NCBI RefSeq assembly: GCF_036971445.1
Contig: NC_091471.1
Location: 114,328,001-114,392,000, forward strand
DNA from: Narcine bancroftii
Taxonomy: Eukaryota
DNA length: 64,000 bases
Direction of reading: 5' to 3'
In this document: one piece after another, positions 14,171-58,839 of the stretch
Layout: each line of letters starts with the position of its first letter
Position numbering within the stretch: position 1 is the stretch's first letter
The notes under the pieces: model-generated
What the model was told of the DNA's origin: nothing
What the model saw: only the letters and a program-made list of their open reading frames with translations
Database searches by the model: none
Made by a program: the position numbers and the translations under genes

Positions 14171-14456
14171 TGTGGTGATACACCACTAGCCTACTCCAGG
14201 GGGCAATCTCTGTACCTGCAGTAAGACCACCGAAGGACAGACTACACCTGGTCGGCTGTCAAATCAGCTGACCTGAATAGACCCCTAGGGGGCTAACTCC
14301 ACCTGGCCAGCTATCACCTGACCAGGATATAGTTCTGAGCCAGTCACTTGGGAGCCACCATTACAGCCTCTACTGTAGCAGAGACCTTTAGCCAAATAAA
14401 GCCTGTTGTACAGTCTTCAAGTTCGTGTCTGTTTACTGCTGCTGCATTGCATCACG
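14171..14456 (+). mobile_element. Solo LTR of the same Gypsy lineage
   Basis: TGTGGTG...CACG; perfect 5-bp TSD CAGAC; AATAAAGCCTGTTGTACAGTC; similar to the copy A and D LTRs. Confidence 0.9.
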
Positions 14457-15974
14457 CAGACTAAAGGCAATTTTGTGTAATATTGGTTTTTTGTTTTATT
14501 AGATGGCATTAAATAAATAGTATCTGATCTGCATCCTGCCATGGTCTTAATGCTACAATATGGTTCATGTGGAGACACATTTCCTGCTGGAGATCAGCAA
14601 TCAATTGAGAGGAATAGTTTCAAGATCCAAGATGTTATTGCTGCGTGTTGTGACACTTTGCATCTCTGGCTTGCATCACCTTCCTCAGGTATAGCACAGC
14701 ATGAAGTTGAGTAAAGAATGCTATACACTAACCCAGAATAATTTAAATCTGAACTCAAAAGATCACCACTTTGGACATTCCCATTCCAGCACTTGTTGGC
14801 GCTGTTGACTTGAATGGTTAATTGTGGGGAACTTTCTGCTATGGTCCTATATCCTGAGAAATTTTATTCATATTTTTCCCAAATGTAGTTCATGAAAGGT
14901 AAACAAATGGCATCCATCCCCTTTGTGCAGAAGGAATTGGAACGAAAAACATCAAGGCAATGCCAAAGCAATTTGGTATAGAAGTCTGGACCTGCTTGAA
15001 CCTGCCGACTTTTGTGCATTTTAGTACAATCACAGCGACTATGGACTTTCTTTTTTCACCACCACCCGCCCCCCAGCCCCGGTACAGAAGTCTGTTGTTT
15101 TCAATAAATTGACAAATGGAAGAGATCCATAAATAAAAACAACATGGAATTCAGAAAAAAATATGCTTTCTCAGAGAGAAGGCAGAATGTGGAATTCTAT
15201 CAGAAAAAATAATTGAAACAAATAAGTACTTGCGCAATGTATCTGATGGATAAAAGAATAGAAGGGTCAAATATAATGTAAAGTCTATATTGACTAAATT
15301 TATTCAAGGGTCAATTTCTTGCCTGAAATTTATAAGCCATTCTAAATAATATTTTTCAATGTTCATAGAGGACAAGAGTGCAAATATGTCATTTATTTTA
15401 AACTATATTGAGCAGTATGTTTGTTTCTTCTCTGGAGAAGATCTACTTATTATCATCAGATTTTTGACAAAGTTGCTGAAGTACTTTTTTTAAACTAACA
15501 ATAGTTTCCTTTTGAAACCTGCAATGTTGGAAAGCCTGCCCATTGCCATATTTATCTATCTGCAAGAAGTCAAGCATTACATTAATAACTTAACATGGCA
15601 ACCTTTAAGTCCTGGGCACTGCAGGATCAAAAACAAGGAAAATTTTAATTTAAGTGTCATTATGGAATTATTTTGATTGTTTAATTTGTTCAATACAATT
15701 GTTTTGAAGGAAATACACAGCTTTTCAAGAAACCACACATGGACTATTCTCACCAAGTGAGTTAACTTTCATCTTCCCTCAGGTCTCATCCCTGTAACTC
15801 ATCATGTATGTTGAAATACCTTCCGGTGGATATTTTTCACTCAGAAAATGGATTCAGCAAGAAACTTCCTTTTTCTGAGATTTGTTGCCTTATTCCAACT
15901 GTCAATATTTATAGTATAGATTAGATTGAATTGCTAACAATGACTTCAGCAAATATATTTTAAACCAAATGCAA

Positions 15975-18526: not shown

Positions 18527-21486
18527 GTTTAGAGAAAGACTGTGGCATGAAAAAGATTTGACTCTGGAAATGGCTGTGAATATGTGTAGGGCAGCAGAGA
18601 AGCAGAACTCCAGGAGTTTTCCAAAGCTACAGCAAAGCAATGAGGTAAGCTCAAACAGAAAATGCAGCAGGTGCGGAGGTAGACATATTCCAAAGATGTG
18701 ACCTGCCTATGGAAAGTCCTACTCTAAATGAGGGAAGAAGAATAATTTTGCAAAGTGCTGCAAAGCAGGGGCTACCAAGAGAAAAGTGCACATAGAGGAT
18801 GAAGAAATGGCGGAATTCTTCGTGGATTCACTGCAGACGGGTGCTGGTAAAACAAAATGGATTGTTCCAGTGACTGTGAATGAGACAGTAATTCCATTTA
18901 AGCTCAACAATGGAGCCCAGGTGAATCTGTTATTTATGGATGATTACAAGTCTCTCACTGTAAAGAGCAAGATTTATCCGCTGAAATTAAAAGTGACAGG
19001 CTACACTGGAGAGAACATTCCAGTAAAAGGGGGCTGTATGGTGATCTTCAAACACAAAGGGCGCATCAAAGTCACAGCTACTGATTATAGAAAAGAGAGT
19101 ATAGCCAATATTAGGTCTGAGAGCATGTGAAGAGCTCAACCTGGTGAAAAGAGTTTTCATAGTGGCTTCACAGATAGAAGATGAGCTCACAGCATTCATA
19201 GGAAGAGTACACAGTTGTCTTTGAGGGGCTTGGATGTTTACACAAGATCCATGTAGATGAGACAGAGGCTCCTGTTGTCCATGCATTCAGGAAAGTTCTG
19301 TTTCCACTTAGAAAGAAACTTAAACAAGAACTAGCATGCATGGAACAGATGAAAGTGATACAGAAAATTGAAGAACCTACTGATTGGGTCATCATGCAAA
19401 ATAAAAATGGATCATTGCATATGTGTCTGGACCCAAGAGATCTCAATAAAGCCATCAAGAGAGAGCATTTTAAATTGCCAAAACAAGAGGAAATCATGTC
19501 GCAGTTTGCAGGTGCCAAGTGGTTTAGTAAGCTCGACGCATCATTGGAGTTTTGACAGATGAAGCTCAATGAGACACGTTCGAGACTATGCACTTCCAAT
19601 ATTCAACAGGGAAGATACCAATTCTTTCAGCTACCATATGGAATCTTGTTCATACCAGAAGTCTACCATAAAACTATCCATATGATCTTTGAAAATATAC
19701 CTGGAGTTGAGACCATGATGGATGACATCATTTTATGGGGGTCCACCAAGAATTAACATGACACGCGAATGTCAATTTGAAATTAAAGAGAAATGTGAGT
19801 TTGGTGTAAAGACACTGACCTTCAAAGGAGATGTCATATCTGAACAGGGAGTGAAGCCTGATCCAAGAAAGACATCAGCCATTGGGAATTTTGTGAGGAC
19901 CCAAAACAGAGGAGGTGAGATATTTCTTGGGGATGGTGACTTACTTGGCTATGTTCATCCTTTGGCTGTCGACTATGACAGCACCGCATAGGTCATTCCT
20001 TGAGCAGGTCTGGTCACACGAGCAAGAAGAGTGTTTCCAGACACTTAAAAAAGCCCCATCACAAGAGCCTGCACTAAAGTTTTATGATCCGGACAGGCAC
20101 ACCAGGATCTCATCTGATACATCCCAACATGGCCTTGGAGAAGAACTACTGCAGCAGCATGAGGACACATGGCAACCTATGGCCTATGCATCAAGGGCTT
20201 TAACAGGTGCAGAAGTCAACTATGCACAGATAAAGAAAGAGCTTTATGATGCGTGCAAAAGTTCCATCAATACATTTATGGACAAGCTCTTGAAATGGAG
20301 ACAGACCATAAACCATTGGTCTTAATTCTGTCCAAACCATTGAATGACTGTCCCATGTGAGTGCAGCGCATGTTGAAAAGTCTGCAAAAATACAATGTGA
20401 AAATGATCTACATGCCAGAAAATACATGCTTGCTGCTGATGTACTACTGAGCAGTTGACAAGAAAGAAAGGAGTGACCAAGAGGTTAATGTGGAGATACA
20501 GGCCTATGTTGACATGATTATCATCTCATTTCCAGTATCCCAGGATACACAGAGCAAATCAGAAAAGCAACAAAGACAGATGAAACAATGAAAGTGCTCA
20601 AAGATACAATGCAGAAAGGATGTCCAGCAGCTAAGAATGACTCTCCAATGGGTATTCGGGACTATTGGGCTTGCAGAGATGAACTGTCAGTTGTGAAAGA
20701 TATGGTCATCAAAGAGATCAGGTTTGTGATTCCAGTGTTGTTAGATGCACGAAGGACATCTTGATGAGGGAAAATGCAAACATAGAGCTTGAGAGGTGAT
20801 GTACTGACCAAGAATGAACCAAGACATAAGCCAGACCACCGCTTCATGCAAAATATGCCTTACCTATAGACCAAAGCAGTAAGAAGAACTGCTTACACCA
20901 CACCCTGCACTAGATAGGCTGTACTTCAAAGTTAGAGTAGATTTGTTCGACTGTAATGGGAAGTGTCATATAGAAGTAACAGACTATTTTTCCAATTACC
21001 CAGAGGTAACAACACTGCAGTCAACATCCAGCAAAGCAGTTATCACTTTCATGAAAAAAGTATTTGTGAGGCTTCGAGTTCCTTGTGAAGTAGTATCAGA
21101 CAATGGTCCACAATTTTCAAGCAGTGAATTTGAGTCCTTTGCCAGTACTTGGGAGTTTCAACGTACAACTTCAAGCCCACATCACCTAAAATCTAATGGG
21201 ATAGAAGAGAGTTCTATCAAGGTGGTGAAGAGCTTCATGAAGAAAGCGCATGATGGACGAGAGGATTTCCACAGAAGTCTAATAATTTACAGAAGTGTGC
21301 CACTACAGAATAGCCTTTCTCCTGTCCAAATGCTGATGAGTCGACGCATTCAGATCAAACTGCCAATGCATGAAAATCTGTTGACACCTGAAGGAGCACA
21401 CAAAGTCAAACAGGCTAAAGTGGAAGAGAAAGTAAAACGGAAATAGTATCTGATAAGACTGCGAAAAGCCTAGCGGTCCTTAAGCC

Positions 21487-24400
21487 TATGGTTAAACCAC
21501 TGTTATGCTATGATTGGCTGCTGCCGACTGAACTTACCTTCCTAGACCAATCCTACCCATAACACTTTGCATGCTCCCCATTCCACTCTGCCTGAGGTTG
21601 ACGGCTGTTCCAGTCTATAGTTAATAAAAGCCTATTAGTTTCATAACTTCAGTCTTTTGTGACTATAGTCAATTTTATTAAATATATTTTTTGCCAAAGC
21701 ATGGAACAATAGCTGAAACCTAAGAAGCTCAACATCATCCCTCGATCTCTGGATGCCCCGAACATGTTCGAACTCTGGCTACACTGTTTTGAAGAATTTC
21801 TGGTGATGTGGGCTTGAAGTTATACATTGAAACTTCCAAGTACTGGCAAAGGACTCAAATTCACTGCTTGAAAATTGTGGACCATTGTCTGATACTACTT
21901 CACAAGGAACTCGAAGCCTCACAAGTACTTTTTTCATGAAAGTGGATGCTATCACTCGGATGCTAACCAACTGAGATTATTCTTCACACTAGTCGGATCC
22001 AAGTATTCCCAATGATCAACGATGCCAACATGTACCCGACAGCCTTGAAGATTCTGAAGGCCCAATATCACAAGAAAGTAAATGAGGTCTATACCAGGCA
22101 CATCCTGGCCACCAGAAAATAGTGACCCAATGAGTCAACTTGTGTGCAACTGTAAGGCCATGTTGGCTGTCCAGAATGCTGAGGACCTCATTCGGGATGG
22201 TTATGTGGCCGGTATCTGCTCCTGGTACATAAGACAGAAACTCTTGGAACAAAAAGTACCTGATCTGCAGAGGGTGGTTGAACTGTGAGATACTAGAGCT
22301 GGCCCTCCAAAACTTGGATTATTATTATCTGCCTCTTGGTTGCCATGAATGCCTCTATCTTGGGATGGAGAATCATCCCACACCATGAGCGACTGGTCGC
22401 CCACACCATCCCACTCCTTTGGTGACCTGAACTCAGCTGCCATTGCTGGTGATCTTCCCAACTGCTACTTCTGAGGAAGTTTCCTGAGGAAACACTGCCC
22501 TGCCAAGGAGGCGGTATGCACTAGATAAAGGGACATTATGCCAAGGTTTTCCAGTCCAAACTGTCTGTGAAACCTTGCAGCGCCGCATGTGGACTGTCAC
22601 CGCTCTGGACAGTGTGATCAATGGCATCTCCTCTACAAACCACTGCCATCTTGGACCGCATGGCAAATGTCATCTTCTCAGGCATATGACACCATGAGGG
22701 AACAGAAAGGATGACCATCTTGGGACTGAGGGCAGCCAACTCAGGATCGTGAGCGCCATTGGACTCAGATAGCGAGCCTATACTGGCCTCCATCACCCTG
22801 AACTTGCCGGGTCCATGATGAATGTCCAGGTAAATGGGTGTGTTACCGACTGTTTATTCGATGACAGGAGTAGAAAAAGTTTCATTTACCCTGATACCGC
22901 TAAGCACCTATCCCTTAAAGTACAGCCTGTCAAGCACAAGATATCAGATGGGCCCAAATCACACACTGCAGCCATCTGTGGGTCCTGACCATTGGAGGCA
23001 TAGCTTACAAACATTTCAGGCTACTCATCATGATACAACTCTGTGCCTCCTGTGCTACTGAGGCTGGACTTCCAAAGCCAATTTCAGAAAATTGCATTGA
23101 AATTCGATGGGACCCATGCCTCCACTCACCGTCTGCAACAAACAATTCACAGACGGCCTTCTGCGTCTGACCTGTGGCCTATCAACCCTCAAGGTTGACT
23201 CCATCCCCCCCTCAACTGTTCACCAACTTCACCCCCAAGCCAGTGGCCACCAGGAATAGATGGTATTGTGTGGAAAACAAGGCATTCATTAAATTGGAGG
23301 TTCAGCGCTTGTTGGGCAGGGGCATAATTGAAGCCAGCAATAGCCCTTGGAGGGCGCAGGTGGTTGTGGTAAAGAATGGGGAAAAGGATAGGATGGTCAT
23401 AGATTACAGCAGACCATCAACTGGAACATGCAACTCGATGCGTACCCCCTTCCCCACATATCCGATATGGTCAACCAGATTGCACAAAATTGGGTATGAC
23501 CTGAAGTCGGCATATCACCAGCTATCTATCCACCCGGAGGACTGCCAGTATACTGCATTCGCAGCAGATGGCTGCCTCTACCACTTCCTCTGGGTCCCTT
23601 TCAGCATCTTCCAGCAGGAGATGGACCACATGGTGAATCACTATAATCTGCAGGCCACCTTCCCATACCTAGATACCATATCTGTTGCCACGACCTGTAA
23701 GATCACAATCTAAATCTCTGTAAATTCCTCCAGGCAGAAAAATGTCTGAATCTTACTTATAATGAGGACAGATGTGTATCCTGGACAGCACGACTAGCCA
23801 TCCTCAGATGTGTGGTCGAGAACGGTGTCATTGGCCTTGACCCCGACCATATGTTGCTGGAGCTAACTCTCCCACATATCTTCAAAGCACTGAAGAGATG
23901 CCTCATTTTCTTCTCATATTACGCTCAATGGCCACAGTTATCAAGGCCCTCCACAATATTTTCACACTCTTTTGGTACCCCGGCTTCATCCACAGCGATC
24001 GGGGGACCTCATTCAAGAGTAATGAGCTGCAGCAGTAGCTATGGCCGGGGCATCGTCACGAGCAGGACCACGAACTACAACCCTAAAGGGAATAGGCAAG
24101 CGGAAACAGAGAAACAGTCTGGAAAACCACCCTCCTGGCACTGAAGTCATGGGGCAATCTCCCAATGGCAAGAAGTCCTCCCAAACACACTCCACTCCAT
24201 TTATATATGGCCAATAGCAACAAGCCTCAGTCTGCATCAGGGACTTCGCTGCTCACCTGGCTTACATCCCCAGGACTAGTCCTACTTCAGAAGCACACCA
24301 GACAATCTAAAACTGATCCACTGGTCGAGAGGGTCCTCCTTCTCCACATTAACCTCTTGACAGGCGCGAGGACATGGTCTCAATCACTTCAACCGCCACT

Positions 24401-24937
24401 GACTACCGACAGACACTACACCCCCACCCCCCCCACCCACTGCTACCTCAGGGGTTCCTGAGCCTGTGGCTGATCATTCTCCACCCCTGACTACTGTTGT
24501 TTCCCATGATACACCAGCACCACACTCCCTTACCCCCTCACCTGTTTCCCCCCCTCGACAAACTGTAACTGGTGATGACAGGCCAACCCTACAACCTTCT
24601 CAGGATGCTATGGCAACACCCCGACCATTACCACGTTGTTCACTAAGGCAAAGGAGACCCGCTGACACACTTAATCTGTAAAATGTATATTTGTATCATT
24701 TTTTTCTCACTCTGCAGGACTCTTCCTCAAAAGAAGGGGTGAATTTGGTGAACCATTGTTGGCTGCTGCCGGCTGGACACGCCTCCCAAGACAAATGCTA
24801 CCCATAGTCTTTTGCAGGCTCCTCATTCCACTCTGCCTTGATCAGTCAATGAGGTTGGGCGGCTGTTCCAGTCTATAGTTAATAAAAGCTTGTCAGTTTC
24901 ACAACTCCAGTCTTTTGTGATTATTGACGGTGTGTCA
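21487..24937 (+). mobile_element. Ty3/Gypsy LTR retrotransposon copy B (decayed, internally deleted), nested in the Mag-like element
   Basis: LTRs 21487-21671 and 24744-24937; PPT aaaagaaggggtgaa; gag ATG at 21701; RT SPWRAQVVVVK..RMVIDY..ATFPYLD; C-terminus RRPADTLNL*. Confidence 0.9.
21802..21944 (-). repeat. 143-bp inverted copy of 21044-21186 (Mag-like integrase) inserted in the gag of copy B
   Basis: Reverse complement with about 4 mismatches; ORF 21779-21970 repeats the peptide in ORF 20943-21446. Confidence 0.93.
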
Positions 24938-25410
24938 AGTACATAAGGTCTAACAAGCTAAAGTAGAAGAGAAAGTAAAACAGAAACAGTATCATGATAA
25001 GACTGCAAAAGCCTACCTGTCCTGAAGCCTGGAGTTTAAGTGTGAATCTGAGAAAACAATTCTGGCACATGGTCCATGCAAGGATATGTGCAAGAGGAAA
25101 TAGATCCTCATTCCTACCAGATCCAGACAGAGAGAGGGACACCTCTGAGAAGGAACCACATGGATCTACGACCACAATCTCCAACCCATGGTTGTGACTG
25201 GTCACCTGTCAGTACACAAAAGGGGCTAGCATATGAAGAAAAGAAACATGTTGTTTAGAGTTCACAAAAAGTCACAATGACTAACGCAGCAAATGGAAGC
25301 AATACACCGGTGGAAACACATACCAGACCAAAAAAGACTGTTAAACCATCTCAGAGACTGATTGAAAGCTCTTGAGTGGAGAGAGACTGGCCACAGAATA
25401 TAGATACCCT

Positions 25411-38600: not shown

Positions 38601-41600
38601 TACCATATAAGACGGCATTCGGATAAGACAGGTCCCCACTTTCAGCTTGAATTTCATGCTTTTATCATATATTGGGTGCATAACTGCAGTGAACTGGAAT
38701 TCACTGGTAGGGTGATTTTGCTGATGGCTGGCTCCGCCCCCATCTACCCACATAAAACCCTGGTTTCCCGCCTAAACCCAGAACCTTTCTGAAGACTACT
38801 GTGAGACTCTACCCTTAGTTATAAGCTAATAAGAAGGTTCTCCCTCCAGTCGTGAGAGCTTTTATTCACACTACAATTTTATTTTCGTATTCCCGAAATG
38901 ATGGAAGTGCTACTCAAGCCAGGTAGACCTGCTGATAGACCCTCTGTCTCTCGACGTACTGGCTAGACTGCTTTCAGTCCTACCTGAATGCGACCAGAGA
39001 TGTCTTCCACACTGATGAACTTAGGAGGTCTGCACTCATTTCAAGGTAGGAACGAAAGAGTATGCAGTCATCAGGGACTGCACTACATATAACGCTGCTA
39101 TCGAGGAGTTGAAGGCTGGGTACCTGAAGTTGCAAAATGAGGTCCTAGAGTTGCACCGACTCGCTTTACGTTGCCAGGAGAGACCATTGATGATTACCTG
39201 CTGGATCTGTGGATGCTTGCTAAGAAGTGCAGGTATGAAGTGGCTCTGGGCCGCATTCATGAAGAAGAAAATATCTAGGATACCCTGATTGCATGGGTCC
39301 GCTCGAGGTACATGAGGCAGGGACTGCTTGAGTCAGGTAAGAAGGACCTGGCCAAATCGTTGGATCAGGCCAAGCTTGAAAATGATGACCTCAAAGCCAG
39401 CGAGCTTGCTCACCCAGGTGATCCTTTCCAATGACTGGCTGCTCCTGCTACCCCAGCTCTAACGACTTCCGCTTCCCACACTAGGGAGCAGTTCCGTGCA
39501 AGGGAGTGCTTTTTCTGCAGCAAGAGCCAGTATCCGTGATCTTGTTGCCCGGTTAAAGACTCAGTGTGTTCCAGTTGTGGCAAGAAAGGGCACTGGGTGA
39601 GGGTTTGCCACATGAGGGGAAGCCTGGGGTAGTCCACGGCCTGCAATGCTCATGGATCCGATTCCAGCACCAAGCCATCTGCCCCAAATTCAACCAAACC
39701 CACTTGCTGATGGAGGGAAATGAGGAAACAGCGCAAAAAGGCTCAGTGACCATCTTGCCGTGACCCAAATTCAAACTCGGTGCTATCGTCGTCAGAGGAG
39801 GAAGGAGGGTGGCCATCTTGCCATGCCATGAGGTCGACGCCATCTTACCCATACCGGGCAACCCAGGATGGGGCCACTCGTGTGAGGAGTATGGAGTCTC
39901 CGAGTTCCTAGCCTCAATGGTCCTAGATCAGGACTAACCTCAGCAATTCAGCAACTCCATAGTGACTGTGAAGGTAAACGGACATTCCACTAAATGCCCA
40001 ATCGATACAGGCTCTACTGAAAGCTTCACAGACTCACAGATTGTACAAGAGTACAACCTAAAGATGTATCTTTCCAATAATCGTATATTCCTAGCGTCTC
40101 ATTCACATTCTACGCATATTCAACAACATTGTATAGTGCACTTGTCGTTTGAAGGGGGGGGGGAAATTTGTAAAATACACCTGTATGTACTTGATGAATT
40201 ATGTGTTCCAGTGCTGTTAGGTCTGGACTTCCTGTGTCACCTTAAGAGCATGACTTTTGAGTATTCTGGTCCCCTCCCCCTGTAACGGTTCGGAATGGAG
40301 GGCCTCTAAAATCAGAACCCACATGCAGCTTCTCCACACTTAATATCAAACCCCCACCTCTCTTCCTGAGTCTGTCCTCAGACTGCAAATCTATTGCTAC
40401 CAAGAGCAGGAGGCACAACACAGCAGACTGAAATTTTATAAAGTCTGAGACACAATGTCTGCTCAATGAAGGTATCATCAAACCTAGCACCAGCCCATGG
40501 AGAGCAAAAACATGTCCAGTCTAGTAATTGACTATAGCATAACTATTAATCGGTACACACTCCTGAACGCATAACCCCTCCCTCGAATTTTGGACATGGT
40601 GAATGATATTGCACAGTATCGACCACTGACTTGAAAGCATCTGATCACCAGCTGCCAATCCATTCTGAGGACCATCCATATATGGCTTTTGAAGCTAACG
40701 GTCATCTCTATCAATTCTGGAGGATCCCTTTCTGTATTACTAATGGGGTTTCTACAAGAGGCAGATGGACAGAATGGTGGATGAATATGGGTTATAGACT
40801 ACCTTCCCCTATCTTGATAATGTCATCATCTCTGGCCATACCTTGGAAGACCATGACGGCAACCTCCAGAACTTTCTCCATGTGGCGAAAGCCATGAACC
40901 TCACTTATAACACTAACAAGTGTGTGTTCAGGACTAAATGGCTGGTTATCCTTGGCTTTGTGGTGGAGAATGGCATCATTGGCCCCAACCCAGATAGGAT
41001 GTACTCTCTGTTAGAGCTCTCTGTTCCCAGGACCACAAAGGCTTTGATGAGATTTCTGGGGGATTTCTCGTATTATGCCCAATGGATCCCTCAATATGCT
41101 GATAAGGTTCATTCTCTCTTAAAAGCCACTAATTTCCCCCTCTCGGCTGAAGCCCAAAAGGCTTTTAACTACCTCCAAAATCGCATTGCGAAAGCAGCCA
41201 GTGGACAAGAATGCACCTTTCCAAGTGGAAAGCAATGCTTTAGACGTAGCCCTGGTCATTACTCTCAACCAGGCGGGCAGGCCGGTTGCATTCTTTTCTC
41301 AGACATTACAAGCCACGAGCTCCAGAACCCATCTGTGGAAAAGGAGGCTCAAGCCATTGTAGAAGTTGTGAGGCACTGGAGATGCTACCTGGCTGGTAGG
41401 AAATTTATGCTCCTCACTGACCAGTGCTCTGTCGCATTCATGTTTAATAATGTCAAGAAGGCCAAAATCAAGAATGACAAGATTGCTAAGTGGAAGATCG
41501 AGCTCTCCACCTACAATTATGGCCTATCAGCCAGAAGCCCTTAATGACTCTCCAGATGCCTTATCCAGAGGAAGCTGTGCCTTTGCACACACCAGCCAAC

Positions 41601-43409
41601 TGCAGTCTCTGCATAATGAGCTTTGCCATCCAAGGGTTACCCGCGTGGCTCATTTTGTCAAGGCATGCAATCTGCCCTACTCCATGGAAGATGTCAAGGA
41701 AATGACCAGGTTTTGCCAGGTCTGCGCGGAGTGCAATCCGCACTTCTACCGTCTCGCCCCGCACCTGATTAAGTCATCCTGGCCCTTCAAATGGATCAGT
41801 ATCGATTTTAAGGGACCACTCCCCTTCACAAACAGGAACACTTTCTTCCTCTGTATCATTGGTGAGTACTTCTCCTTCCCTTTTGCCAACACATGCCCAG
41901 ACACGTCCACTTCGTCAGTCATAATGGGCCTAGATTCTATTTTCGCCCTGTGTATCCCAGCTATATTCATAGTGACTCATCCATTATGAGTGACAAGCTA
42001 TGTCAGTACCTGCTGGCGAGGGGCATCGCATCCAGCAAGACTAATAGGTACAACCCCCAGGGGAATAGGCACATTGAAAAGGTCTGGAAGACTGTCAAAC
42101 TGGCCTTGAAGTCAAAAGGCCTTCCAGACTCATGCTGGCAGGTCGTCCTTCCTATGGTGCTCCATTCCATCCGGTTGCTACTATGTACTGCGACCATCAC
42201 TACTGCACATGAGCTCCTATTCAATTTCAAAAGAAGGTCAGCATCAGGAACTACACTCCCAACCTGGCTCACCACTCCTCATCCAGTCCTTCTCAGAAAG
42301 CACGTGAGGAGAACCAAAGCCGGTGGAAAGGGTGAAACTGCTCCACACCAATCCTACATATGCTTATGTGGAGTATCTGGATGGCAGAAAGGACATCGTC
42401 TCCATCAGAGACATGGAACCCACCGGAACAGAGGGTCCGTTGCCTTAACTGCCCTGCAAGTCACGGAACTCATTCTCACCACTCCCAGTCAGGGCCTCAG
42501 GGGATCCAGTTCAGGAGGAAAGTGCATCCCCTTCCACCATTAAGCCAGAGTCCCAGCCTGCCTCTCCTCCCTCACAAGGGGACCAGAAGACCCAAGGTGT
42601 CCCTGGTGCTAAGGCGCTCCACCAGAATCTCCAGACTGCTTAAATCTGTAGATTTGTAAATAACTCTATATTTTTCGATTTTTTTTCTGAACCCGTGTTC
42701 TCTGTTTTCATTCACAGACCCTAAATTGTGCAGGAAGGAGTAAATGCAGTGAACTGGGATTCACTGGTAGTGTGTTGTGCTGATGGCTGGTTCCACCTCC
42801 CGGCTCCACCCCCCACCTGCTCACGTATAACCCTGGTTTCCCGCCTAAACCCAGAAAGTCTACTGCAAGACCCTCCCCATAGTTATAAACGAATAAAAGT
42901 GTTGGTTTTCTTTCCTGTCGTGAGAGCTTTTATTCGCACTACAATAAGACAACTCCCTCCCCCCACAAAAAAAATGTATGTTGACTGAGCTGGTGTCGTG
43001 TTGACTGAGTTGTTGGGTGTGGTCGGAAGGTGGATGTTATAATGGACCCTCCAGCAAAACAAAGAAATTATGAAGCAAATTTTAAGTTAAAAGTCATTGA
43101 AGTGGCCAAGGAATCGACCAACTGGTGCTGCTGCGAGGTGATTTATTGCGGGACACCGATGACAAAATGGAGGCCAACTCATCAGATTCAGACTGGGACA
43201 CCAGAAACTCCAGAAGTGTTTTCTGAATTCTTTGCCTCAATAATAGTGATAGGATTTTAGATGTGTTTTTTTACAATAAAAATTTATTTCTAATATATTA
43301 GAATCTTAAAAATTTGTTGTAGTGTGGGGTCTGGGTGGGTTATGGAACCAATCGAGTGGTATTTTTTTGGGTGCTTCAAGGGTTGTCTTATATGTCAAAA
43401 TATATGCTA
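38601..43409 (+). mobile_element. Deleted pogo/Tigger-like DNA transposon split by Gypsy copy C
   Basis: TA-flanked CATATA..ATAAGACAAC terminal motifs (the left one reconstituted across the LTR insertion, the right at 43382-43409). MDPPAKQRNYEANFKLKVIEVAKES at 43042 resembles a pogo/Brinker-type DNA-binding N-terminus. Confidence 0.65.
38685..42943 (+). mobile_element. Ty3/Gypsy LTR retrotransposon copy C (decayed)
   Basis: LTRs 38685-38875 and 42745-42943 (TGCAGTG..CTACA); TSD ATAAC/ATAAG; PPT aggaaggagtaaa; protease IDTGSTES, RNase H EKEAQAIVE, integrase ISIDFKGPLP. Confidence 0.92.
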
Positions 43410-45182
43410 TGTACCTTTCACTTGATGTGCTCACGTCTTTTTGGATTCCACGATAACTAAAGTTGTGTTAACACATCAGAAATTCCTTTCTAGCACTGGC
43501 TTTTATTAGTTGGCCCAGTTAGAAAGTGTTGGGATAGCAAATCATTAATCTCTGAACCTGGGAAATTTAGCACAGTATGTCGGTTTTAGCAAAATTTCTT
43601 TGAGGAATTAGCAACTTGTCTTTTGTATGTATGTAAAATACAACCTCCTATGTTCTATTTTATTTGGTCCACGTCAGTGTCCCCATAATTTGTGCTATAC
43701 CTCACAAAGTGGGATGTGACCAGTGGGAATTTACAAAGATGTGCTGGACATGGTATAAATTAAGCTGAGTAAACCACCTGACATCCTTGCTCCCCTCTCC
43801 ATTTATAGCACAGGGATTAACTGCGAGAAGCAGCACTTCATTCATTGACTAATCTCCCACCCTGAGAAACAAGGAATTAATTTAGAGGCCGAGTTTCTTA
43901 GAAAATGTGTTTGGTAAGCTTTTCCTATTTGCTTGTAAACAGGAATTTGAGTGGCAAATGATTGCAGTGCTTGTGTGCATGGTCACCTCATTGAAAACGA
44001 ACTCTGGCTCTTCCTGATCAACAAACGTTTGCCAAGCCTTTGTTGCTTTAGGTTCAAAATAGTTAAAAGGTGTAAATAACATTTCAATTGAATGTTAGCA
44101 ATTTCTGGATGTAACTGATTTTGATATATCTGTAATTAGGGTTGATAAATAATAAATGAATCTATTTTATATATGAAGGATAATTAAAACTAAATTTCAC
44201 TTATGCAAGTTCAATAACTGAGACAAAAAAAAACTAGAAATTGATATGCACTTGAGCTCAGAACTGTGGCTTTGGACATTGCCTGCCTCTCATACTGTGA
44301 AACACACAAGGGAAAAGTCAGCAGGTCCAGGGTCCAGATCCAGAGGATGAGTCATTGGGAGCCTAGTCAGGACCTTGAATTGGGAGGGAGGGGAAAGTTG
44401 TGAGCCCAGTGCTCAGACTCTTGCCGATCAGAGGTTAGGTAACAGTGTTAATCATGGTCTTGTTATAAAAGGGGTGGGGGGGGGGGGGGTGCGGAATGGG
44501 TTGGGGATGTAGATGTTCAGAATTTAAACTCCAAGATGGAGGGTGCCTCTGTGATTAATGTCTAGCTGGAGAAAGAAGTGACTGGGGAAATGGGAAGTGA
44601 AGATAGGAGGTGCTCAGAGTTTGTTGTTGGGAGGTGAGATTTTGGCTGTGGGGTATTGGGCTAGCCCTGAGGCCACGAGAGATGTGTAGGGTTTTACAAA
44701 GATCAAATAAGTTACAGAGGTGAAAGGTGACCTTTCCGTGTCCCATTTTCTGAGCTAGGGTTAGATCAGCTCCATGATCTTAATATCACATGAAATAACT
44801 GCTAAGGGAGAAGGACCATGAAAACAATAATGGGCACTTCTTGGAATAATTTAGGCTGATATACCAAAAGAATACAACATGGTGATTGACTACACCCCCT
44901 GACAATATGTAGCTGATGTATGACATGCACAAGAGTGAATCGTGGCCTGACGTTCAGTTCAGTTTATATTTATTGTTACATGCACCATGGCACAGTGAGA
45001 AAGTTTGTTTAGCGAACAGTCCTGAGGGACATCCCATACAGAGTACAGCAATGTTCAGGTGTTTGGGGATGGGTGAAGTTTGACTTAGAAATAGTTGCAA
45101 TCATATTTTTATCTGAGAAACAAGTGATTTTCAGACATGTGATGCTGAAAATAATGAAAAGCAACATATATTTAAATGATAC

Positions 45183-45474
45183 TGTGGTGGTACACCACCG
45201 GCCTACTGCAGGAGGCAACCTCTGTACCTGCAGGAATGTAAGGGGACAGGACAACACCTGGCTGGCTGTCAATCAGTTGGCCTGAATGGATCAAGCCCCA
45301 CCCGGTTGGGTGTCAATCACCCTCTGGGATATAAGCCTGCGTCGGCCTCCCGAGGCCTCACTCAGAGTTGCTGCAGCTACAGCCAGCCTGGCTCTGTGGA
45401 AGTCTTTGTGGATTAAAGCCTGCTGTACAGTCTTTACCTTGTGTGTATCTGATTCTGGCTAACAGCGCACCACA
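45183..45474 (+). repeat. 5' LTR of copy D
   Basis: TATA-like gatataag at about 45328; ATTAAA at 45412-45417. Confidence 0.95.
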
Positions 45475-45505
45475 ATTTAATCCACAGAATGTTCCCACGG
45501 CGGCC

Positions 45506-48500
45506 ATGGAAAAACTCGAGCGCAGGGAGCCTCGAAGTCGACCCACGCCACCCGCAAGCCCAGACACGCTTCGAGATCTGGCAGCACGCGGTCGAGGCAA
45601 TCATCAAGGCACACAAAGGCGGCATCCTGGACTCAGATCGGAAGAGGTTGGTCCTACTCCGGTCAAAGCTGGGTCCCCACGCCTTCCAGGGAACCAAAGA
45701 CTGCTCCACGTACAAGAGTGCAATGGACACTCTCGAGAAGTTGTAAAAGCCCCCCATGAATCCTGTCTGTGCAAGGTACCTCCTCAACACCTGAGCCCAG
45801 CAACCTGGGGAGATGGCTGAATCTTACCTGGGACACCTGCGAGAGTTGGCCCGACCATGTCTGGCTGAACCCTGGGTAGGTGCAGAAGAGGTCAAGAGGC
45901 TGATCCAGGACACCTTTGTCTGAAGGTTATGCTTTACGGCCATCCGGCAGAAGTTGCTGGAAGACAATATCTATGCCTTAACCAAGATGATGGAAGTGGT
46001 CCAAACCCTGGATGCGGCAGCCCTGCACATCGGTCTTCGATTCCAGGTTCCCCTAGGCTCCTTCATGGCCCTCTCACACTGCAGCTGCAGCCCCAAACTG
46101 AGGTGGGGAGGAAAACATCACTGCAGCAGGTGCCCGGCGCCTCTGTAAATACTGTGAGTCCTGGTGTGGGTCAGACCGACGATCGCGCCAACACTGCCCG
46201 GCTAGGAACCAGTACTGTTCCCAATGCGGCAAGAGAGGCCACTTTGCTAAAGTGTGCCTCTTAAAACCAACCAACAGCTCAGCGGCCCTCTATGACCTCC
46301 CCACCTTCCCCGCCGACCCCTCCACGTGCACATGCTGGGCAGCACCATTGTCCCAGCTACAACTTCCACCTTCCCCAACTCCAACGGTACACCATTCGGC
46401 TCCGCCAGCGACGATCGCAGCGTGTGCCCCAAGCACCCGGACCAGCCCCCACCCTTGCCAGCTCACGATGTGACGTCACTTCTGGCAGATGTACTGACAT
46501 CACTGCCGCCGGCTTCCCCCAGCACAACGAACACAACTGGGGAAGGAGGCCATCTTGGGCCAGGCAGTGGCCTACATGGAGGGACCCCGATGGCGAGGAG
46601 AACAACATGGTCAACACGGGCAATGACCAGGCCACCTCTGGACACCATAAATCGCCAAGCACAACCGGAGAGCAACAACTCTGACCCCGAGATGGTCCTG
46701 GCTGCCACCACGCTGACCAGGGACATTCCTCACGACCTTGGGCACTCTATGATGGAGATGCAAGTCAACGGGCAGGTAACAAAATGCCTGTTTGACAGTG
46801 GCAGCACCGAGTGCTTCAATCACCCGAGCGTGGCCCACTCCCTGAGATTAAAAGTCCACCCCACCACCTGCTCGATTGCCCTCGCCACCAAGGATAAGAC
46901 TGTTGGTGCCCTTGGGCTCTGCTCGGCCGATATAACTGTGGGACAGGAGACTTACACGGGGTTCAGGCTCCTCGTCATGCCCAAACTCTGCGCCCCAGTC
47001 CTCCTGGCCCTAGATTTCCAGTGCCACCTGCAGAGCATCACCCTTGCCTTTGGGGGGCTCCAACCTCCATTCACACTACACAGCCTGCCAACCTACCAGG
47101 CCTGGCCAACCTGCAGCCTCTCCACACTACGCATCACCCCACAGGCGCTCTTCCAACATCTTACGCTAAGCTGCAAGCCGATCACTGCCAGATGTAGGTG
47201 CTATTGTACCGCAGACAGAGAGTTCATCAAGGTGGAGGTGTGGCGACTCCTTGTGGAAGGTGTCATAGAGCCCAGTTACAGCCCTTGGAGAGCCCAAGTC
47301 CTGGTGGTCAAAGGGGGAAGTAAGCCGAGGATGGTCGTGGATTACAGCCAGACCATTAACCGGTACACCCATCTGAATGCCTACCCCTTGCCTAGGATCG
47401 CCGACATGGTCAATGAGATAGCACGCTACCGGGTTTTCTCCACGATTGACCTGAAGTCGGCATATCACCAAATCCCCATCCACCCAAAGTACAAGCCCTA
47501 CACCACCTTCGAGGCAGACGGGTACCTGTACCAGTCTGCCGAGTTCCCTTTGGGGTCATGAATGGAGTCTCCGTCTTCCAGCGGGAGATGGATCGCATGG
47601 TAGACCGGCACAAGCTAAAGGCGGCATTCTCGTATCTGGATAACATCGCTATCTGCAGCCATGACCAGCAGGACCACGATGCTAACTTGGAAAATTTCCT
47701 CCAGATGGCCGGGGAGCTGAAACTCACTTACAACAAAGAGAAATGTGTGTTTAGCACCACCCACCTCGCCATCCTGGGATATATTGTGGCCCATGGGGTC
47801 GTTGGCCCAGATCAAGAAAGGATGCGCCCATTAATGGAACTACCTCTCCCCCCACGCTAAAGGCCCTTCGCAGGTGCCTATTACTCGCAGTGGGTTCCTT
47901 GCTTCTCGGACAAGGTCTGCCCACTGGTCCAAGCCTCAACTTTTCCCCTCCCACCCGAGGCGCAAGCAGCCTTCATCCGCATCAGTCAGGACATTGTGGA
48001 CGCCACGATGCAGGCCATGAATAAGGACTTCCCCTTCCAGGTGGAGAGCGATGCTTCCGAGGTACCCTCAACCAAGGGGGGCGCCCTGTCGCTCTCTTCT
48101 CTAGGACCCTCCACGGCTCCAAGCTAGGGCATTCCGCCATTGAAAAGGAAGCCCAGGCAATAGTGGAAGCGGTCCGCCACTGGGGCCACTACCTGTCTGG
48201 CAGGAGATTCACCCTCCTCATGGACCAGCGGGCCGTGGCGTTCATGTTTAACACTACCCACAAGAGTAAGATCAAGAACGACAAGACCTGCGCTGGAGAG
48301 CCATGCTGGCAACCTACAGCTACGATATCCAGTACCGCCCCGGGAAGTTTAATGACTCCCGCGATGCCCTCTCTCGGACCTGCGCATTTATGCACGACGA
48401 CATGCTGCAGGCATTGCATGAGTCCCTCTGCCATCTGGGTGACACCAGGTTGTACCACTTCATTAAGTCCCGGAACCTGCCGTATACCATCAGGGACATT

Positions 48501-49512
48501 AGGGACATGATCAAGGCCTGCCAGGTCTGCGCATAGTGTAAACCCTGTTTCTTCCACCCGCCCCAGACCCACGTCGTGAAGGCTACTCGGCCCTTCGAGT
48601 GTCTCGGCATGGACTTCAAAGGGCCCCTGCCTTCCACAAACTGAAACGTCTACTTCCTCACGGTAGTGGACAAGTAGTCATGGGCAGATCTTCACCATGT
48701 TTGGCTACCTCACTTTCATCCACAGTGACCGGGGATCAAGTTTCATGAGTGATGAGCTGCGCCGGTACCTGACGGCGAGGGGCATCCCGACTAGCCACAC
48801 GACGAGTTATAACCCGAGAATCAATGGGCAAGTGGAATGTGAAAATGGGGTGGTCTGGAAGGCAGTCCTCCTGGCTCTCAAGTCGAAAGGGTGGGCTGTT
48901 GAGTACTGGCAGGACGCCCTGCCCGAGGCGCTCCATGCCATTCGGTCACTACCAACGAAACTCCTCATGAACATCTGTTCACATTCCCCAGGAAGTCAGC
49001 GACTGGTATGTCCCTCTCAGCATGGCTCACGTCTCTGGTACTGGTGCTCCTGCATCAACATGTATGGACACACAAGGCTGAACCCCTGGTCGAGCAGGTC
49101 TTCCTCCTACACGCGAACCCCAACTATGACTATGTTAGGTTCAGTGGTGGCAGGGAGGACACAATCTCAACCAGGGACCTAACACCAGCAGGCACACCCA
49201 CCACTCCACAGCATCCTTCAGCCCAGGACGACGCCGACAGGGCATACATCTCCGTCCCCAGGCAGCTATGGGGTGCGCAGGACCTCCTTGACCACCAGGG
49301 GCCTGCTTCAGCCCTGGGGGACAAAACTGCCCCCCCCACCCATCTAATATGACTCGACCCTGGCCCCCTTGGCCACCCCTCCATTCGGCACCACACCAGT
49401 CACACAGACCCCTGCCGCCAGCCCCCCCACTTCTCCTCTTACCAGTGACCAGGAGCCAGTCCTACGATGGTCACAAAGACCCCGGTGGTCGCCCGATCGT
49501 CTCAATCTGTAA
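45506..49512 (+). pseudogene. gag-pol of copy D (frameshifted)
   Basis: ORFs 45489-45746, 46326-47561, 47558-47860, 48163-48510, 48303-48536, 48697-49182 and 49008-49352. Confidence 0.9.
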
Positions 49513-49601
49513 ATATTGTATTTTGTATAGTGGGTACGATTTCTTGTTACTGCACCACCCCCCCCACCACTCCCCAGGATAATTTTAAAGAAGTGGGTGA
49601 A

Positions 49602-49939
49602 TGTGGTGGTCCACCATCGGCCTACTGCAGGGGGCAACCTCTGTACCTGCAGGAGTGTACCGCTGGCCTACTGCAGGGGGCAACCTCTCTACCTGCAGGA
49701 GTGTAAGGGGACAGGACAACACCTGGCCGGCTGTCAATCAGTTGGCCTGAATGGATCAAGCCCCACCCGGTTGGAGGTCAATCACCCTCCGGGATATAAG
49801 CCTGTGCCGGCCTCCCGAGGCCTCACTCAGAGTTGCTGCAGCTACAGCCAGCCTGGTTCTGTGGAAGTCTTTGTGGATTAAAGCCTGTTGTACAGTCTTT
49901 ACCTTGTGTGTATCTGATTCTGGCTAACAGTGCACCACA
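49602..49939 (+). repeat. 3' LTR of copy D, carrying a 46-bp tandem duplication
   Basis: ggcctactgcagggggcaacctct.tacctgcaggagtgta occurs twice; 338 bp versus 292 bp for the 5' LTR. Confidence 0.95.
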
Positions 49940-50289
49940 GATACCTAAAAATTGTCCAGATATGTGGACAGCAGAACAAAGTTTTCCTTTGAACCATGTC
50001 TCCATAGCAACACAATCTATGTCAAAACAATACGAGAAATGACCCGGAAGCCTTTGAGTCTGTAGGGTGCAGCTGGGTGAATGTGTACCTTCAAAAGTGG
50101 ATGCACAGCCAGACCAAGAGGTTGTATAAATCTACAACGTGAGATGCCTCTGTATGGTTCTGAGGAGCTATGGGCTTTTCCTCTTGCTGAGATGTGGAAT
50201 TTACTGTGAAGTCTTTGGAGCATTTGTAGCTTTCAGAAGGGCAGAATATTGTGTAATAGAGAGAGTTCAGCTAAAAACAGTGCAAGAGC

Positions 50290-54097: not shown

Positions 54098-56895
54098 TGT
54101 TGTGTCTCTGTGTTACTTGGGAGGCTTCTTAAATAACTTAGAGATGCAAGATTCAAATAACAATAGAGACTTTACTTACTGACATCTTCCACCATCACAG
54201 GACACTGTTCACACACACTTGTATACATATACATATGCCCCACAGTGGTGCACTCCAGTTACTACAGTGAGAAGGGTGTATTCGTATGCGGTTACAAAAT
54301 AGTTCACATTATCCTGACTATATAACATCCTTCCTTCTCAAGATAAAGAAGTATTTAGCATTCTTTATTGCTTTCTTTCCAGTGCAACTTAAATAACTGA
54401 CTTGTACACTAGTTTATTTACTCAATTATTTTTAAATAGTTCTTATCGATATCGCCATCTTGTGGATTTGGCTGTGACTGTTGGGCTCTGTGTTGCTGGT
54501 TTACGTGTAGATGATGTAGCTTGTTGTGCTTCACCTGACAACTGCTGTGTTGATGTTTCAGTATTAGTGGTTGTGGTCTCTTCACTTGATACCTCACTTG
54601 ATATTGGTGTTGCAGGCTTTGCTGGTATTAAAGCTTTCTGCTTCTTGTGTCAGCTGGATGTGAATTCTGTTCCTCCTCAGCTGATTGCCAGAGTCTGTCT
54701 CAACAATGTATGATGTCTCAGCTTTTCTGATGACCTTCGCTGGGGTCCATGTTTTCAACATCGCCTCTTGAATATGCACGTGCTGCCCTCTGAAGACTTC
54801 TGGCAATGTTTGTGCGTGTTTGGTATAATGATGGTGTTCCTTCTTCTTGCACATCAGTCAGTCTTCTAGTTTCCTCCTGGTCTTCTTGAGGGTGTATTTT
54901 GCTTGGCTGGGTTGTTTTATATCTCCCTCCATTTAGTTCTATTGGGGTCTTCATGTCAGCCCTTAAAGCTGTTGCTCATAATGACAGAAGAGCTAGGTAT
55001 AGGTCTTCTTTTGTTTCACGACACTTAACTAGTGTACGTTTCACAGTTTGGACTTGTCTTTCAATGAACCCATGACCTTTGGGGTAGTATGGGGATGATG
55101 TAGTGATAACAAACCCATACTCTGCCGCCAGCTTTCTGAATTCTTGTGATGTGAACTATGTTCCATTGCCACTTATTACTTGCTCGAGTATTCCTTGAGC
55201 GCTCTTATTTCTGAGGTGATAGTTGACGTTCTCAGGTCTTTCACCCTATTGATAAATGGAAACTTGGAGAAGTAACATGCTACATTTAAATACCACTCTT
55301 GATTCTCGGTGAACAAGTCTGCTCCCATTGCCTGGCAGGTACTTCTGTGGAAATCATTTCCTCTTTTTGCTGTGTGTTTCTGTACATTTAGTGTATCTTC
55401 TTCATCTGGATCTCATAATTGACACATCAATTGCAACCCTGCAGCTATCCAGTCCTGGAATTGCTGGTCCATCTGCATCTACCATGTAGAATGTATAGAG
55501 CATGTTCTTTCCCTTTTTGAAACTATTGATCTTAGCTCTCCCTAGCTGCTTGATCATGGATCCACCATAGGCTGTTAATGTGACATTTTCTATTTTCAAT
55601 GCACCGTCTTTTGGATACCCTTTTATTGTGTTCTCTGGGAACATCTGACAGTAGAGTCTGAGTGGAAGGACATTGCTTTATGATCCAGTATCCAGCTTCA
55701 CCTTTAGGTTAAATATCGTCGGCTTGTTCTGGATTCTCCTCTGAATTTGGATCTTTGTGTGCTTCTTTCTTTCATCTCACCCAACATCTCATAAAGGTGC
55801 ATGGATTCCATGTCCAGTATCTGGGTGTCGGAGTCCTCATTGTTGTTTCCTTTTATGTGGTGGATCTTCTTGTCTTTTTTCTTCACTAATATTACTGTTT
55901 TCTTTATTCCAGACTTGCACATCTTTGCCCAGTGGTTTGCTTTACCATATGCATGGCATATTTTTCGGTCATCAAAAGGGTGCCGTCTGCCATACTTCCT
56001 GCAGGTCTTGGGGGTTTGCACTTTTATGATTGTATTCTTTATAACATCAACCCTTTCCTGTGGGTGGGTCTACATAGATAGGGATTTCATTGCGTGCTCC
56101 TGGCTTTGAAGGGTCTGGCTGTATCTAGCTTCAAGCTATCCTTCTCTATAAGAGCCTTTTGCTCTTCGGGATGGGCACTCCCCCATATTAGTCGATCAAC
56201 TAATCTTTCGTCTATATCTTTAAATCTGCATTTTGCAGCAACAATTTTTAGTCTAGTGAGGAAGTTGTCAACAGCTTCATCAGTCTCTTGCATTAAGCCT
56301 CGAAATTCATTGCGGTTAATTCTATGATTCGATTTGGGTTCAAGGTGAGAAGCAAACTTTGCAAATATCAGCTCTAGATCATTTTTCTCCACCTCTGTAA
56401 GCTCCCAGCTATAAAATATGTCATGGCCTCGCTCCCCTCTCCAGAGAAGTATATAACTGACCTTCTCCTTGCTGTTGAATGTTAAATTACACACCTGCTG
56501 AAACTTTTTAAATGATTCAACACTGTCTTCATCCTCCCAGTCCATCATTGGGTGACCTGCTGTTGCTCCAGCCATTTTTTTTTTTCAGTAGTGTATTTTC
56601 TCTTCTTCCCCTTCATATTTCAGTGACTTACAATCAATTGTATGACTCTTATACCACTGCCACCAGGTTATGTCTCTGTGTTACGTGGGAGGCTTCTTAA
56701 ATAACTTAGAGATGCAAGATTCAAATAACAAAAGAGACTTTATTTACTGATGTCTTCCACCATCACAGGACACTGTTCACACGTAATCGTGTACATCGAC
56801 GTAAGTCCCACAATGATGAACTACAATTACTACAGTGAGAAGGGTGTATTCTTATGTGGTTACAAAATAGTTCATGCTATCCTATCTATATAACA
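54098..56895 (-). mobile_element. Mag-like Gypsy deletion derivative (gag, protease, partial integrase; no RT/RNase H)
   Basis: LTRs 54098-54327 and 56666-56895; PPT gagaaggaagga; gag ORF 56087-56575; knuckle CHAYGKANHWAKMC; protease KLDTGS at about 55685-55703; integrase tail SYIVETDSGNQLRRNR. Confidence 0.9.
56653..56665 (-). promoter_or_regulatory. Canonical tRNA primer-binding site (tRNA-Leu type)
   Basis: TGGTGGCAGTGGT directly after the 5' LTR; matches TGGTGGCAGCGGT, the complement of the tRNA-Leu 3' end, with one CpG transition. Confidence 0.8.
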
Positions 56896-58839
56896 TGCAC
56901 TTTGATAGAAGGAATAAATAAGTAGACAATTTTCTAAATGGGAATAGAATTCAGAAAACAGAGGTTAAAAGGGACAGGAGTCTTAGCGCTGGATTCCCTA
57001 AAAGTTCACTTACAGGTTGAGTCAGTAGTAAGTAGGAATCAAATGCAATGTTTGTATTCATTTTGTGAGGACTAGAATATAAAAACAAAGAAGCTTTACA
57101 AGCATTTTGGTCGGACCACGTTTGGAGTGTTGTGAGCGATTTTGGCCCCCATATCTAAGGAAGGGTGTGCTGGGATTGGAGAGTATCCAGAGGAGGTTTA
57201 TGAGAATGATTCTGTGGAGGAGAGGAGTGCTTGATGTCTCTGGAGCTGTACTTGTTGAAGTTTAGAAGGGGGGATGGTCTCATCAAAACATTCTGAATAT
57301 TGAAAGGGCTGGATATGGTCGACATGGATAAGATGTCTCCAGTAGTGAAAAAAGTCTGGGGCCAGAGGGAACAGCCTCAGAATAAAAGGAAGTCCCTTTA
57401 GAACAGAGCTGAGGGGAAATTTCTTCAGTCAGAGAGAGGTGAAACTGGAGAATTCAATGCCACAGACTGCTGTAGAAGTCATTGGGTGTATTTAAAGCAG
57501 AGGTTTCTCAGTTCTTGATTAGTAAGGGCATCAAAGGTTATGGGGAGAAGCCAGGTGAATGGGGATGAAAGGAAAAAGAAACATCAGCCATGATTTGAAT
57601 GGTCGAGAAAACTTGATGGCAGAATGGCCTCACTGCTGTCAGATACAGGGCCACTTATCAATGGTTAGGAATAATCCAGAATGACGTGTTGATGCTCTTT
57701 GTACCATCCTGGAATTTTCTTTTAAAGCAATGAGTTTTGATTTTGAATAGAAGTGCACACCTCATGTTTTGATTAATTCTCCATCTGTCAATTTGCAAAT
57801 GCTTCACCACGTGAATGATAATATTAAACTGGAAATTGTTGTCGGTTGAAGTATAATAATCTATTTTATTCAAATTACTCAGATAATAACCACAGAACTT
57901 TGTGATGCCACAAAGCTTTGTGAGACTATTATTTGAGCCTCCCCCTTCCATAGCTTGCTTTTCTCTATGAGTGCAAACAGTGAAGAATCATTTTACATTT
58001 TGTCTATTCTTTGTTCTCATTCAAATATTTAGCCTCACCATGTCTCAGTTGGAAACATGTGATTAACTGAAGAGCTTAGTCTGCAAATGCAGTCAATATT
58101 TATATTGTATCATTTTACAAGCCATCCTTTCAAACTGCAGCTAAAAGCTGTTTACTTACTTCCAGTGTGGTGTGACCCGCCTTTCTCAGAGAGGTCCGAC
58201 TCAAAGCAGTTAAAAATTAAACCAGCTGCAAGAGGTGGCCTGCTAATCCAGATATTTATTCAGGTGGTTGTCTAACTCATTTGCAGACACTAGTTTTTCC
58301 AGTTGTAAGCAAAGGTGCAACATGAGAAAAAGTCAATTTTCCTCTTTTGCATTTTGTAAATTAAATTCTTAATTAAGATGCATATTCAAAACACAAGCAT
58401 ACATTCTTACTAATGTGTCTCTTCCAAATGTCATGCAAAAGATGAGGGATGATTTTGGTTTCTTTTTTAACATAGAAATCTTAACAGGTTATGAATCTTG
58501 TTTAAATTAAAAAAAAACAATTACTTTCATAAAGAGAATACAGTTTCCTGACACTTTTGACTGGCTGCCATCCGTTGAACTCCAGTAAATGTGCCCTTTT
58601 TAGAAATTCAAATTACAATATCAGGACATGACCTTTTGAAGGAGGAAGTTGATCTTAGGAGTAAATATTGCTAGCTCAAGAGAGGGAACTGTGTACAAAG
58701 GGAAACCAAGGCCCAGAATTTCCTGGAACCATGAGCCACCTCTGCTCACTGTTCACCTCTAAATCTGCACTTTGTGTGGAATCTCGGCAGGAATTTCCCG
58801 AACACCACTTGAAAAGTCACAGAATATTATATCCTTGTC

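Follow-up and report, generated by a model that had tools for sequence, protein, structure and literature searches.

Four related LTR retrotransposons in a 64,000-nucleotide stretch of the Narcine bancroftii genome ("the window" means this whole stretch), together with most of their relatives, probably prime their own reverse transcription in a Tf1-like manner, the element's RNase H cutting after the final AAA of an arm of the 5' LTR that pairs with a tract just past the LTR. At the sequence level, what argues for this is the helix itself, which keeps a register of one base from the end of the LTR, has a sharp inner edge and is absent past the 3' LTR. Self-priming had been among the roles proposed by the initial annotation, and it comes out as the likeliest one: the helix is made with the element's own arm, no tRNA site is found and young copies keep the helix. 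As a whole, the clade is one of Ty3/Gypsy LTR retrotransposons, with TG...CA LTRs, a target duplication, a polypurine tract and the gag-PR-RT-RH-IN order, and its best solved relative is Ty3 Pol (E = 3e-68).

The reference element, copy D, is a complete but broken Gypsy element, with the following features:

45178-45182 and 49940-49944, + strand: 5-bp target-site duplication, GATAC.
45183-45474, + strand: 5' LTR, 292 bp, TG...CA; contig ends at 45183 and 45474.
About 45362-45367, + strand: Inr-like word, with a predicted RNA start near 45360-45364.
45405-45417, + strand: arm 1, the predicted self-primer, TTTGTGGATTAAA, holding ATTAAA (45412-45417) and followed by GCC.
45418-45474, + strand: 57 nt between the predicted cut and the end of the LTR, from which minus strong-stop DNA is predicted to be copied.
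About 45428-45450, + strand: candidate poly(A) site, CA followed by a GT-rich run, inside the 57-nt stretch.
45475, + strand: single unpaired spacer base A between the LTR end and arm 2.
45476-45488, + strand: arm 2, at the primer-binding-site position, TTTAATCCACAGA, complement of arm 1.
45506-49512, + strand: gag-PR-RT-RH-IN region, interrupted by stops and frameshifts.
49587-49601, + strand: polypurine tract ending in GAA, before the 3' LTR.
49602-49939, + strand: 3' LTR, with about 41 bp duplicated near its start.

The two LTRs of copy D are 95% identical over 281 nt. That the LTR ends at 45474 is known without recourse to the pairing, from the 3' LTR (end at 49939) and the GATAC duplication, and contigs from three of four runs exit the LTR at this same base. 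The two arms form 12 Watson-Crick pairs plus one G:U, exactly as had been described, and none of 1000 LTR shuffles reached 12 of 13 pairs (best, 11). The 3' LTR carries arm 1 and is followed directly by the target duplication, with no arm 2. As for the duplication of about 41 bp at the start of this LTR (49602-49700), similar go-back joints are seen in family contigs.

The three other copies of the window carry the helix at these positions:

13001-12988 (arm 1), LTR end 12930, 12928-12915 (arm 2), - strand: helix of copy A, element about 13177-6009.
21616-21629 (arm 1), LTR end 21671, 21673-21686 (arm 2), + strand: helix of copy B, element about 21490-24933.
38821-38834 (arm 1), LTR end 38875, 38877-38890 (arm 2), + strand: decayed helix of copy C, element 38685-42943.

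Their pairing agrees with the original description (a perfect 14/14 in A, 13/14 in B, a 7-pair core in C), and so does the short leader, the gag ATG lying 31 (D), 31 (A), 29 (B) and 22 or 25 (C) nt past the LTR. The YLDN motif attributed to the RT of all four copies was seen in three of them, A, C and D, and a search of B did not find it, and the R.S.R...DRLNL-type integrase end is in frame in A, B and D and can be read in C only across a frameshift.

Several other structures were seen around these copies. Copy B lies inside another integrase-coding element and is flanked on both sides by a 93-bp stretch (21395-21487 and 24938-25030, 86% alike) that exceeds a normal target duplication. Copy A contains an insertion (7441-9247, - strand) in which a GDSL esterase-like frame is followed by an RT frame, a layout that we take to be that of esterase-bearing LINEs. 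A solo LTR related to families A and D (about 14170-14457, + strand), devoid of an internal region, has an arm-like word ending in AATAAA, then GCC. The window also contains inverted repeats at 28945-29822/31516-32381 (878 bp, 94%) and 3541-3816/4676-4951 (276 bp, 98%), and these long repeats are possibly DNA-transposon ends or inverted insertions.

Concerning the primer-binding site, the initial annotation was right that no tRNA-type site is present: TGG was found at this position in none of 133 host copies and none of 30 non-redundant elements, and the tract begins with ATTT instead. The tRNA search that it had recommended was run with six tracts against 32 host tRNA genes covering 10 of the 20 amino-acid types. 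The longest complement was 7 nt anywhere in the tRNA and 1 nt at the CCA end; within that incomplete tRNA set, complementarity to inner tRNA parts thus does not exceed 7 nt, and across families the tract follows the element's own arm. Other elements served as controls. One of the window (54099-56896, - strand; LTRs 88% alike, gag-like frame) has a TGG-initiated tract, a normal site of the tRNA type, after its 5' LTR. Among 20 other Gypsy loci, an LTR pair was found in 13, and in 12 of these 13 the self-complement was 9 nt at most. In this set, which came from an integrase zinc-finger search, five of the six integrase-before-RT elements with a clear LTR end carried TGG five bases beyond the LTR.

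The host genome (3.3 Gb) gave 3292-5804 first-look candidates per family query, 40 of which were scored. Five family sets were then assembled, totalling 133 fetched copies, which were chosen by likeness to queries that included the leader or gag start and are thus biased towards well-kept ones. In these copies, at least 12 of the first 13 positions were Watson-Crick paired in 112 of 133 (D, 26/30; A, 20/25; B, 20/25; C, 20/25; E, a young family taken with its sisters, 26/28), and the spacer was A in 127. All 13 pairs were present in 19 of the 30 D-family copies. The pair counts first given for copies C and D are accurate; the weak pairing of C and the G:U of D are private to these copies and represent single-copy decay, since the copies of their families mostly pair well.

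In family E, ten young copies have LTRs 98.8-100% identical, one open frame with YLDN, two CCHC knuckles and RNase H motifs, the helix and mostly clear 5-bp target duplications. Because these copies, with their near-identical LTRs and open frames, carry the helix, the lineage has moved recently without a tRNA site. In its RT, family E is nearly identical with a protein from a source described as an electric ray, which agrees with a ray as the probable host. The open frames of this young family (L253-L262) range from 1367 to 1492 aa, a spread that may be explained by a low-complexity repeat between gag and protease, as seen in the near-identical protein P0004. As for family C, its LTRs (e.g. 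L150) contain a 9-nt complement of the poly(A) word within the LTR itself in seven of ten copies with an intact arm end; folds using this complement are conceivable at both LTRs and could compete with the helix at the primer site.

Homologous proteins were found in sharks and rays, corals and anemones, nematodes, crustaceans and tunicates. The helix tests cover metagenome and MAG loci and host representatives, the relatives in named animals being known as proteins alone. From 87 metagenome and MAG loci, the 50 whose match reached the gag start were examined; 44 of these had enough upstream DNA and, with ten host representatives, yielded 37 non-redundant loci. The host was mostly represented by individual natural copies picked after viewing, B and C being picked as typical; for L103, the leader window was shifted manually. 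No relatives were found in viral contigs or in a first metagenome scan with one protein, and a protein atlas search returned generic gag clusters only. Seven contigs filed under bacterial MAGs (L111-L117) carry clade members, a placement that likely reflects bins contaminated with host DNA.

In a quick RT tree, with integrase-before-RT elements as the only outgroup and with A and B on long branches drawn from partly out-of-frame pieces, the 39 members were all separated from the six integrase-before-RT elements, which come from this same genome; the ten cartilaginous-fish rows formed one branch.

The statement that pairing rather than sequence is conserved is upheld by the comparison of own and cross stems, by a permutation test and by two-sided changes. 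The longest uninterrupted stem that a leader can form with DNA upstream was scored with no selection on pairing: stems of 10 bp or more occurred in 26 of the 37 own pairs vs. 24 of 1332 cross pairs, and stems of 12 bp or more in 21 vs. 3. A helix anchored one base past the CA end was found in 30 of the 37 loci, and this CA is the LTR end wherever both LTRs are present; of the seven loci where no anchored helix was found, at least four have no recognisable LTR upstream. In the 30 anchored elements, a selected set, positions 4-12 were 95% Watson-Crick vs. 53% (maximum 64%) in 2000 permutations, and each of positions 5-10 and 12-14 showed three or four pair types. Given the kinship among elements, neither these figures nor the stem counts come from independent data, and they are not to be read as probabilities. 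At positions 1-3 the pair is almost invariably A-T. Pairing fades past position 14, and on the inner side the pair adjoining the helix is Watson-Crick in no element. The spacer base is A in 29 of these 30 elements. Across relatives, the helix measures 11-18 bp, typically 13-14, and its loop 31-66 nt. Compared with family E, its sister families show one substitution on both arms and one insertion on both arms; L037 and L071 likewise differ by two-sided changes in their arms.

At the RNA level, the median pair probability of the helix core was 0.98 over the 30 elements, and the helix was present in both the minimum-energy and centroid folds of three leaders, the total folding energy of the leader being ordinary (z from -0.2 to -1.7). 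Side duplexes such as those of the Tf1 "pretzel" did not exceed shuffles in 30 and 20 elements (4.07 vs. 4.09 and 5.25 vs. 5.02), nor did loop structure or structure in the 45 nt before the arm (median z of -0.34 and +0.37). The Rfam search returned a single chance match, below the cut-off. A 5-7-bp hairpin directly after the arm was observed in the metagenome and MAG elements L031, L032, L034, L055, L057, L104, L108 and L111, and not in host families A-F. As evidence, this second hairpin was rejected: hairpins of at least 5 bp occur in 10 of 30 elements, the mean is 3.9 bp vs. 2.8 bp in shuffled sequences, and the start positions show no peak.

The absence of a chromodomain, already remarked upon from the window, holds for the clade: no chromo match was obtained at E 0.1 in any of five unbroken proteins, and none appears in the precomputed domains of the 120 relatives listed. 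A chromodomain search of the genome gave 16 matches, and none of the 12 that were fetched has an RT or integrase nearby. RNase H and integrase motifs are present, including the RNase H active-site motifs in an unbroken relative.

Turning to the RNA start, the TATA box reported 75 nt before the arm of copy D was confirmed as TATAAG at 45330-45335. Among host copies with an intact arm end, used for all promoter-word counts, the spacing of copy D is shared within its family by TATA-like words in 22 of 25 and by Inr-like words in 20 of 25 copies. TATA-like words occur 69-75 nt before the arm in D (22/25), A (13/16), C (10/10) and E (23/24), and not in B; D, A and E also have Inr-like words, at -39 to -45, and CCAAT-like ones further upstream. 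A second Inr-like word, 4 nt before the arm, is found in A (16/16), B (14/16) and some C copies, and is absent in D and young E. Most invertebrate members have no TATA-like word. Assembled contigs on the D leader and the young LTR make the LTR borders visible and are unsuited to mapping starts or poly(A) junctions. Judged from these promoter words, RNA synthesis in this host may well begin about 40 nt upstream of the arm, an assignment made with modest confidence. A longer primer is favoured by this promoter spacing, a short one by the sharp outer edge near 14 bp and by the stop needed when the primer is copied.

Under the favoured self-priming reading, the nascent RNA would fold arm 1 onto arm 2 across the 31-66-nt loop, and the element's own RNase H would cut right after the closing AAA of the arm, leaving a 3'-OH paired at the primer site. 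Extended by RT over the one-base spacer and then the loop, this end would yield a short DNA, which would transfer to the 3' LTR by way of the 12-22 nt common to it and to the RNA end upstream of the predicted poly(A) site. If plus-strand synthesis copies the primer, a change in arm 1 would be written into arm 2, and the near-perfect covariation would be due to templating as well as to selection. The Tf1 self primer is reportedly not removed. In elements whose arm doubles as poly(A) hexamer, a side benefit of the helix would be to hide this hexamer, at the 5' LTR only. Closing AAA is found in 29 of 30 arms and GCCT or ACCT comes next in 19 of 30, a pattern at the arm end that looks like a cut site. 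A more far-reaching version, in which a pan-animal, chromodomain-free Gypsy clade acquired self-priming independently of Tf1/sushi, its primer lying some 40 nt from the RNA start and doubling as poly(A) signal, and a single helix blocking premature 3'-end formation in the 5' LTR and, once cut after its AAA, priming, with no pretzel, is possible and is put forward tentatively.

The first alternative is that the helix hides the poly(A) signal of the 5' LTR (or paces translation or packaging), with a tRNA fragment, a protein or another molecule as primer, which we consider unlikely. Masking suits the geometry, arm 2 being present only after the 5' LTR, and a precedent is provided by HIV-1, where an RNA helix over AAUAAA represses 5' polyadenylation (PMC2645353, in its available part). 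The HIV-1 hairpin, however, forms at both RNA ends and is not a primer, whereas the partner strand of the clade lies outside the LTR, at the primer site, so that its helix forms at the 5' end only. The initial equation of the arm with the poly(A) signal stands for the 18 of 30 arms with AATAAA or ATTAAA, and in a looser sense for five with a weak variant; it fails for the remaining seven, which have none. One of these seven, L052, is a decayed copy whose sibling has ATTAAA. The hexamer-free arms occur in four places of the quick RT tree, two of them beside hexamer-bearing sisters, yet they pair over 11-18 bp, and two have a separate free hexamer downstream, in the loop. Since these seven arms still pair, masking can have at most a side role, and it cannot account for the helix throughout the clade. 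Moreover, masking does not need a register of one base from the LTR end, and no other primer site is visible.

The second alternative, similarly improbable, keeps the cut after AAA and takes as primer the same arm from the 3' LTR copy in the RNA tail (by circularisation) or from a partner RNA. Both LTR copies of the arm would be in the RNA if it starts upstream of the arm, they are indistinguishable by sequence alone, and with a primer from the tail, all of the R region would stay available for strand transfer. On the other hand, the local helix (31-66 nt, probability 0.98) would form first, so that a distant arm would have to displace it, and no published case was found in the literature searched. 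The pairing of the 3' R region with the primer-binding site, which the initial annotation had listed, likewise found no evidence in the sequence analysis.

As for a chance complement in AT-rich DNA, or a functionless relic, both arms are indeed AT-rich and their first three pairs nearly always A-T, but chance is refuted by the cross-pair, permutation and shuffle tests (0 of 1000 shuffles match, and cross pairs of AT-rich relatives rarely reach 10 bp) and a relic fits poorly with a helix intact in the youngest families, which leaves this explanation very improbable.

A comparison with known systems places self-priming by the clade among several proposals. Proof of self-priming exists for Tf1, and the same mode has been predicted for related chromoviruses and for a few lineages in plants. 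A chromodomain at the integrase end is usual, although not universal, in the Tf1/sushi group. In Tf1, the first 11 bases pair with the primer-binding site and RNase H cuts after base 11 (PMC7175516). Tf1 and sushi are chromoviruses, in which the primer is the RNA 5' end, held in a three-duplex pretzel (bioRxiv 2022.12.06.519325, PMC4600332, PMC5341516). Like Tf1, Tf2, Tj1 and sushi as presented in the available parts of PMC7175516, PMC4600332 and bioRxiv 2022.12.06.519325, the clade has no tRNA site and a primer-binding site complementary to its own 5' LTR; like Tf1/sushi in the same sources, it has a single gag-pol frame and its RNase H in cis. Unlike Tf1/sushi, it has no chromodomain and has YLDN at the RT site. 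Its duplex is of 13-14 bp (11-18) vs. 11 bp in Tf1, with no pretzel side duplexes, and its arm, in contrast to that of Tf1, usually overlaps the poly(A) hexamer and may sit about 40 nt inside the RNA. The clade would thus work like Tf1 and is not filed as Tf1/sushi, because neither a chromodomain nor pretzel side duplexes were found.

In plants, Tcn1 (gypsy) and TAR (copia) were called self-priming on the basis of a complement of at least 10 bp located 0-5 bp past the 5' LTR (PMC6317226, in its available part), and 26 of the 37 clade loci reach the same 10 bp. Hosts and clades differ, Tcn1 elements being chromoviruses related to Tf1/sushi and TAR being copia. Self-priming has, therefore, been proposed more than once outside Tf1 itself.

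The clade may already be catalogued in repeat libraries. The name "Selfy" is used there for invertebrate Gypsy families annotated as self-primed, and this group is presumably a candidate for being this very clade. The combination of "Selfy" with "retrotransposon" gave no match in the literature searched, most subscription journals and Repbase being outside its scope. Cigr-1 has about 4.2 kb and one frame of about 1200 aa, a size that fits invertebrate clade members, and Cigr-1 or MolGy is a candidate name for the clade. Cigr-1 and MolGy are small non-chromovirus Gypsy clades of tunicates and molluscs (PMC6238403, in its available part). The available parts of PMC3601003, PMC6934838, PMC13524379, PMC6238403, PMC2774666 and PMC10680173 hold no description of the clade, and the literature searched, with most subscription journals outside its scope, contained no description of self-priming in a chromodomain-free animal Gypsy clade.

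Several consequences would follow. Candidate copies number in the thousands in this genome alone (3292-5804 per family query), and element finders requiring a tRNA primer-binding site would miss or down-rank such elements. Self-primed elements would presumably also escape silencing by tRNA fragments at the primer-binding site. With a fixed cut site and a short leader, the mechanism is directly testable with short RNAs. The clade also bears on whether hairpin or tRNA priming came first, a question raised in PMC3601003, and an animal clade with neither chromodomain nor pretzel would add a further, probably separate, origin of self-priming.
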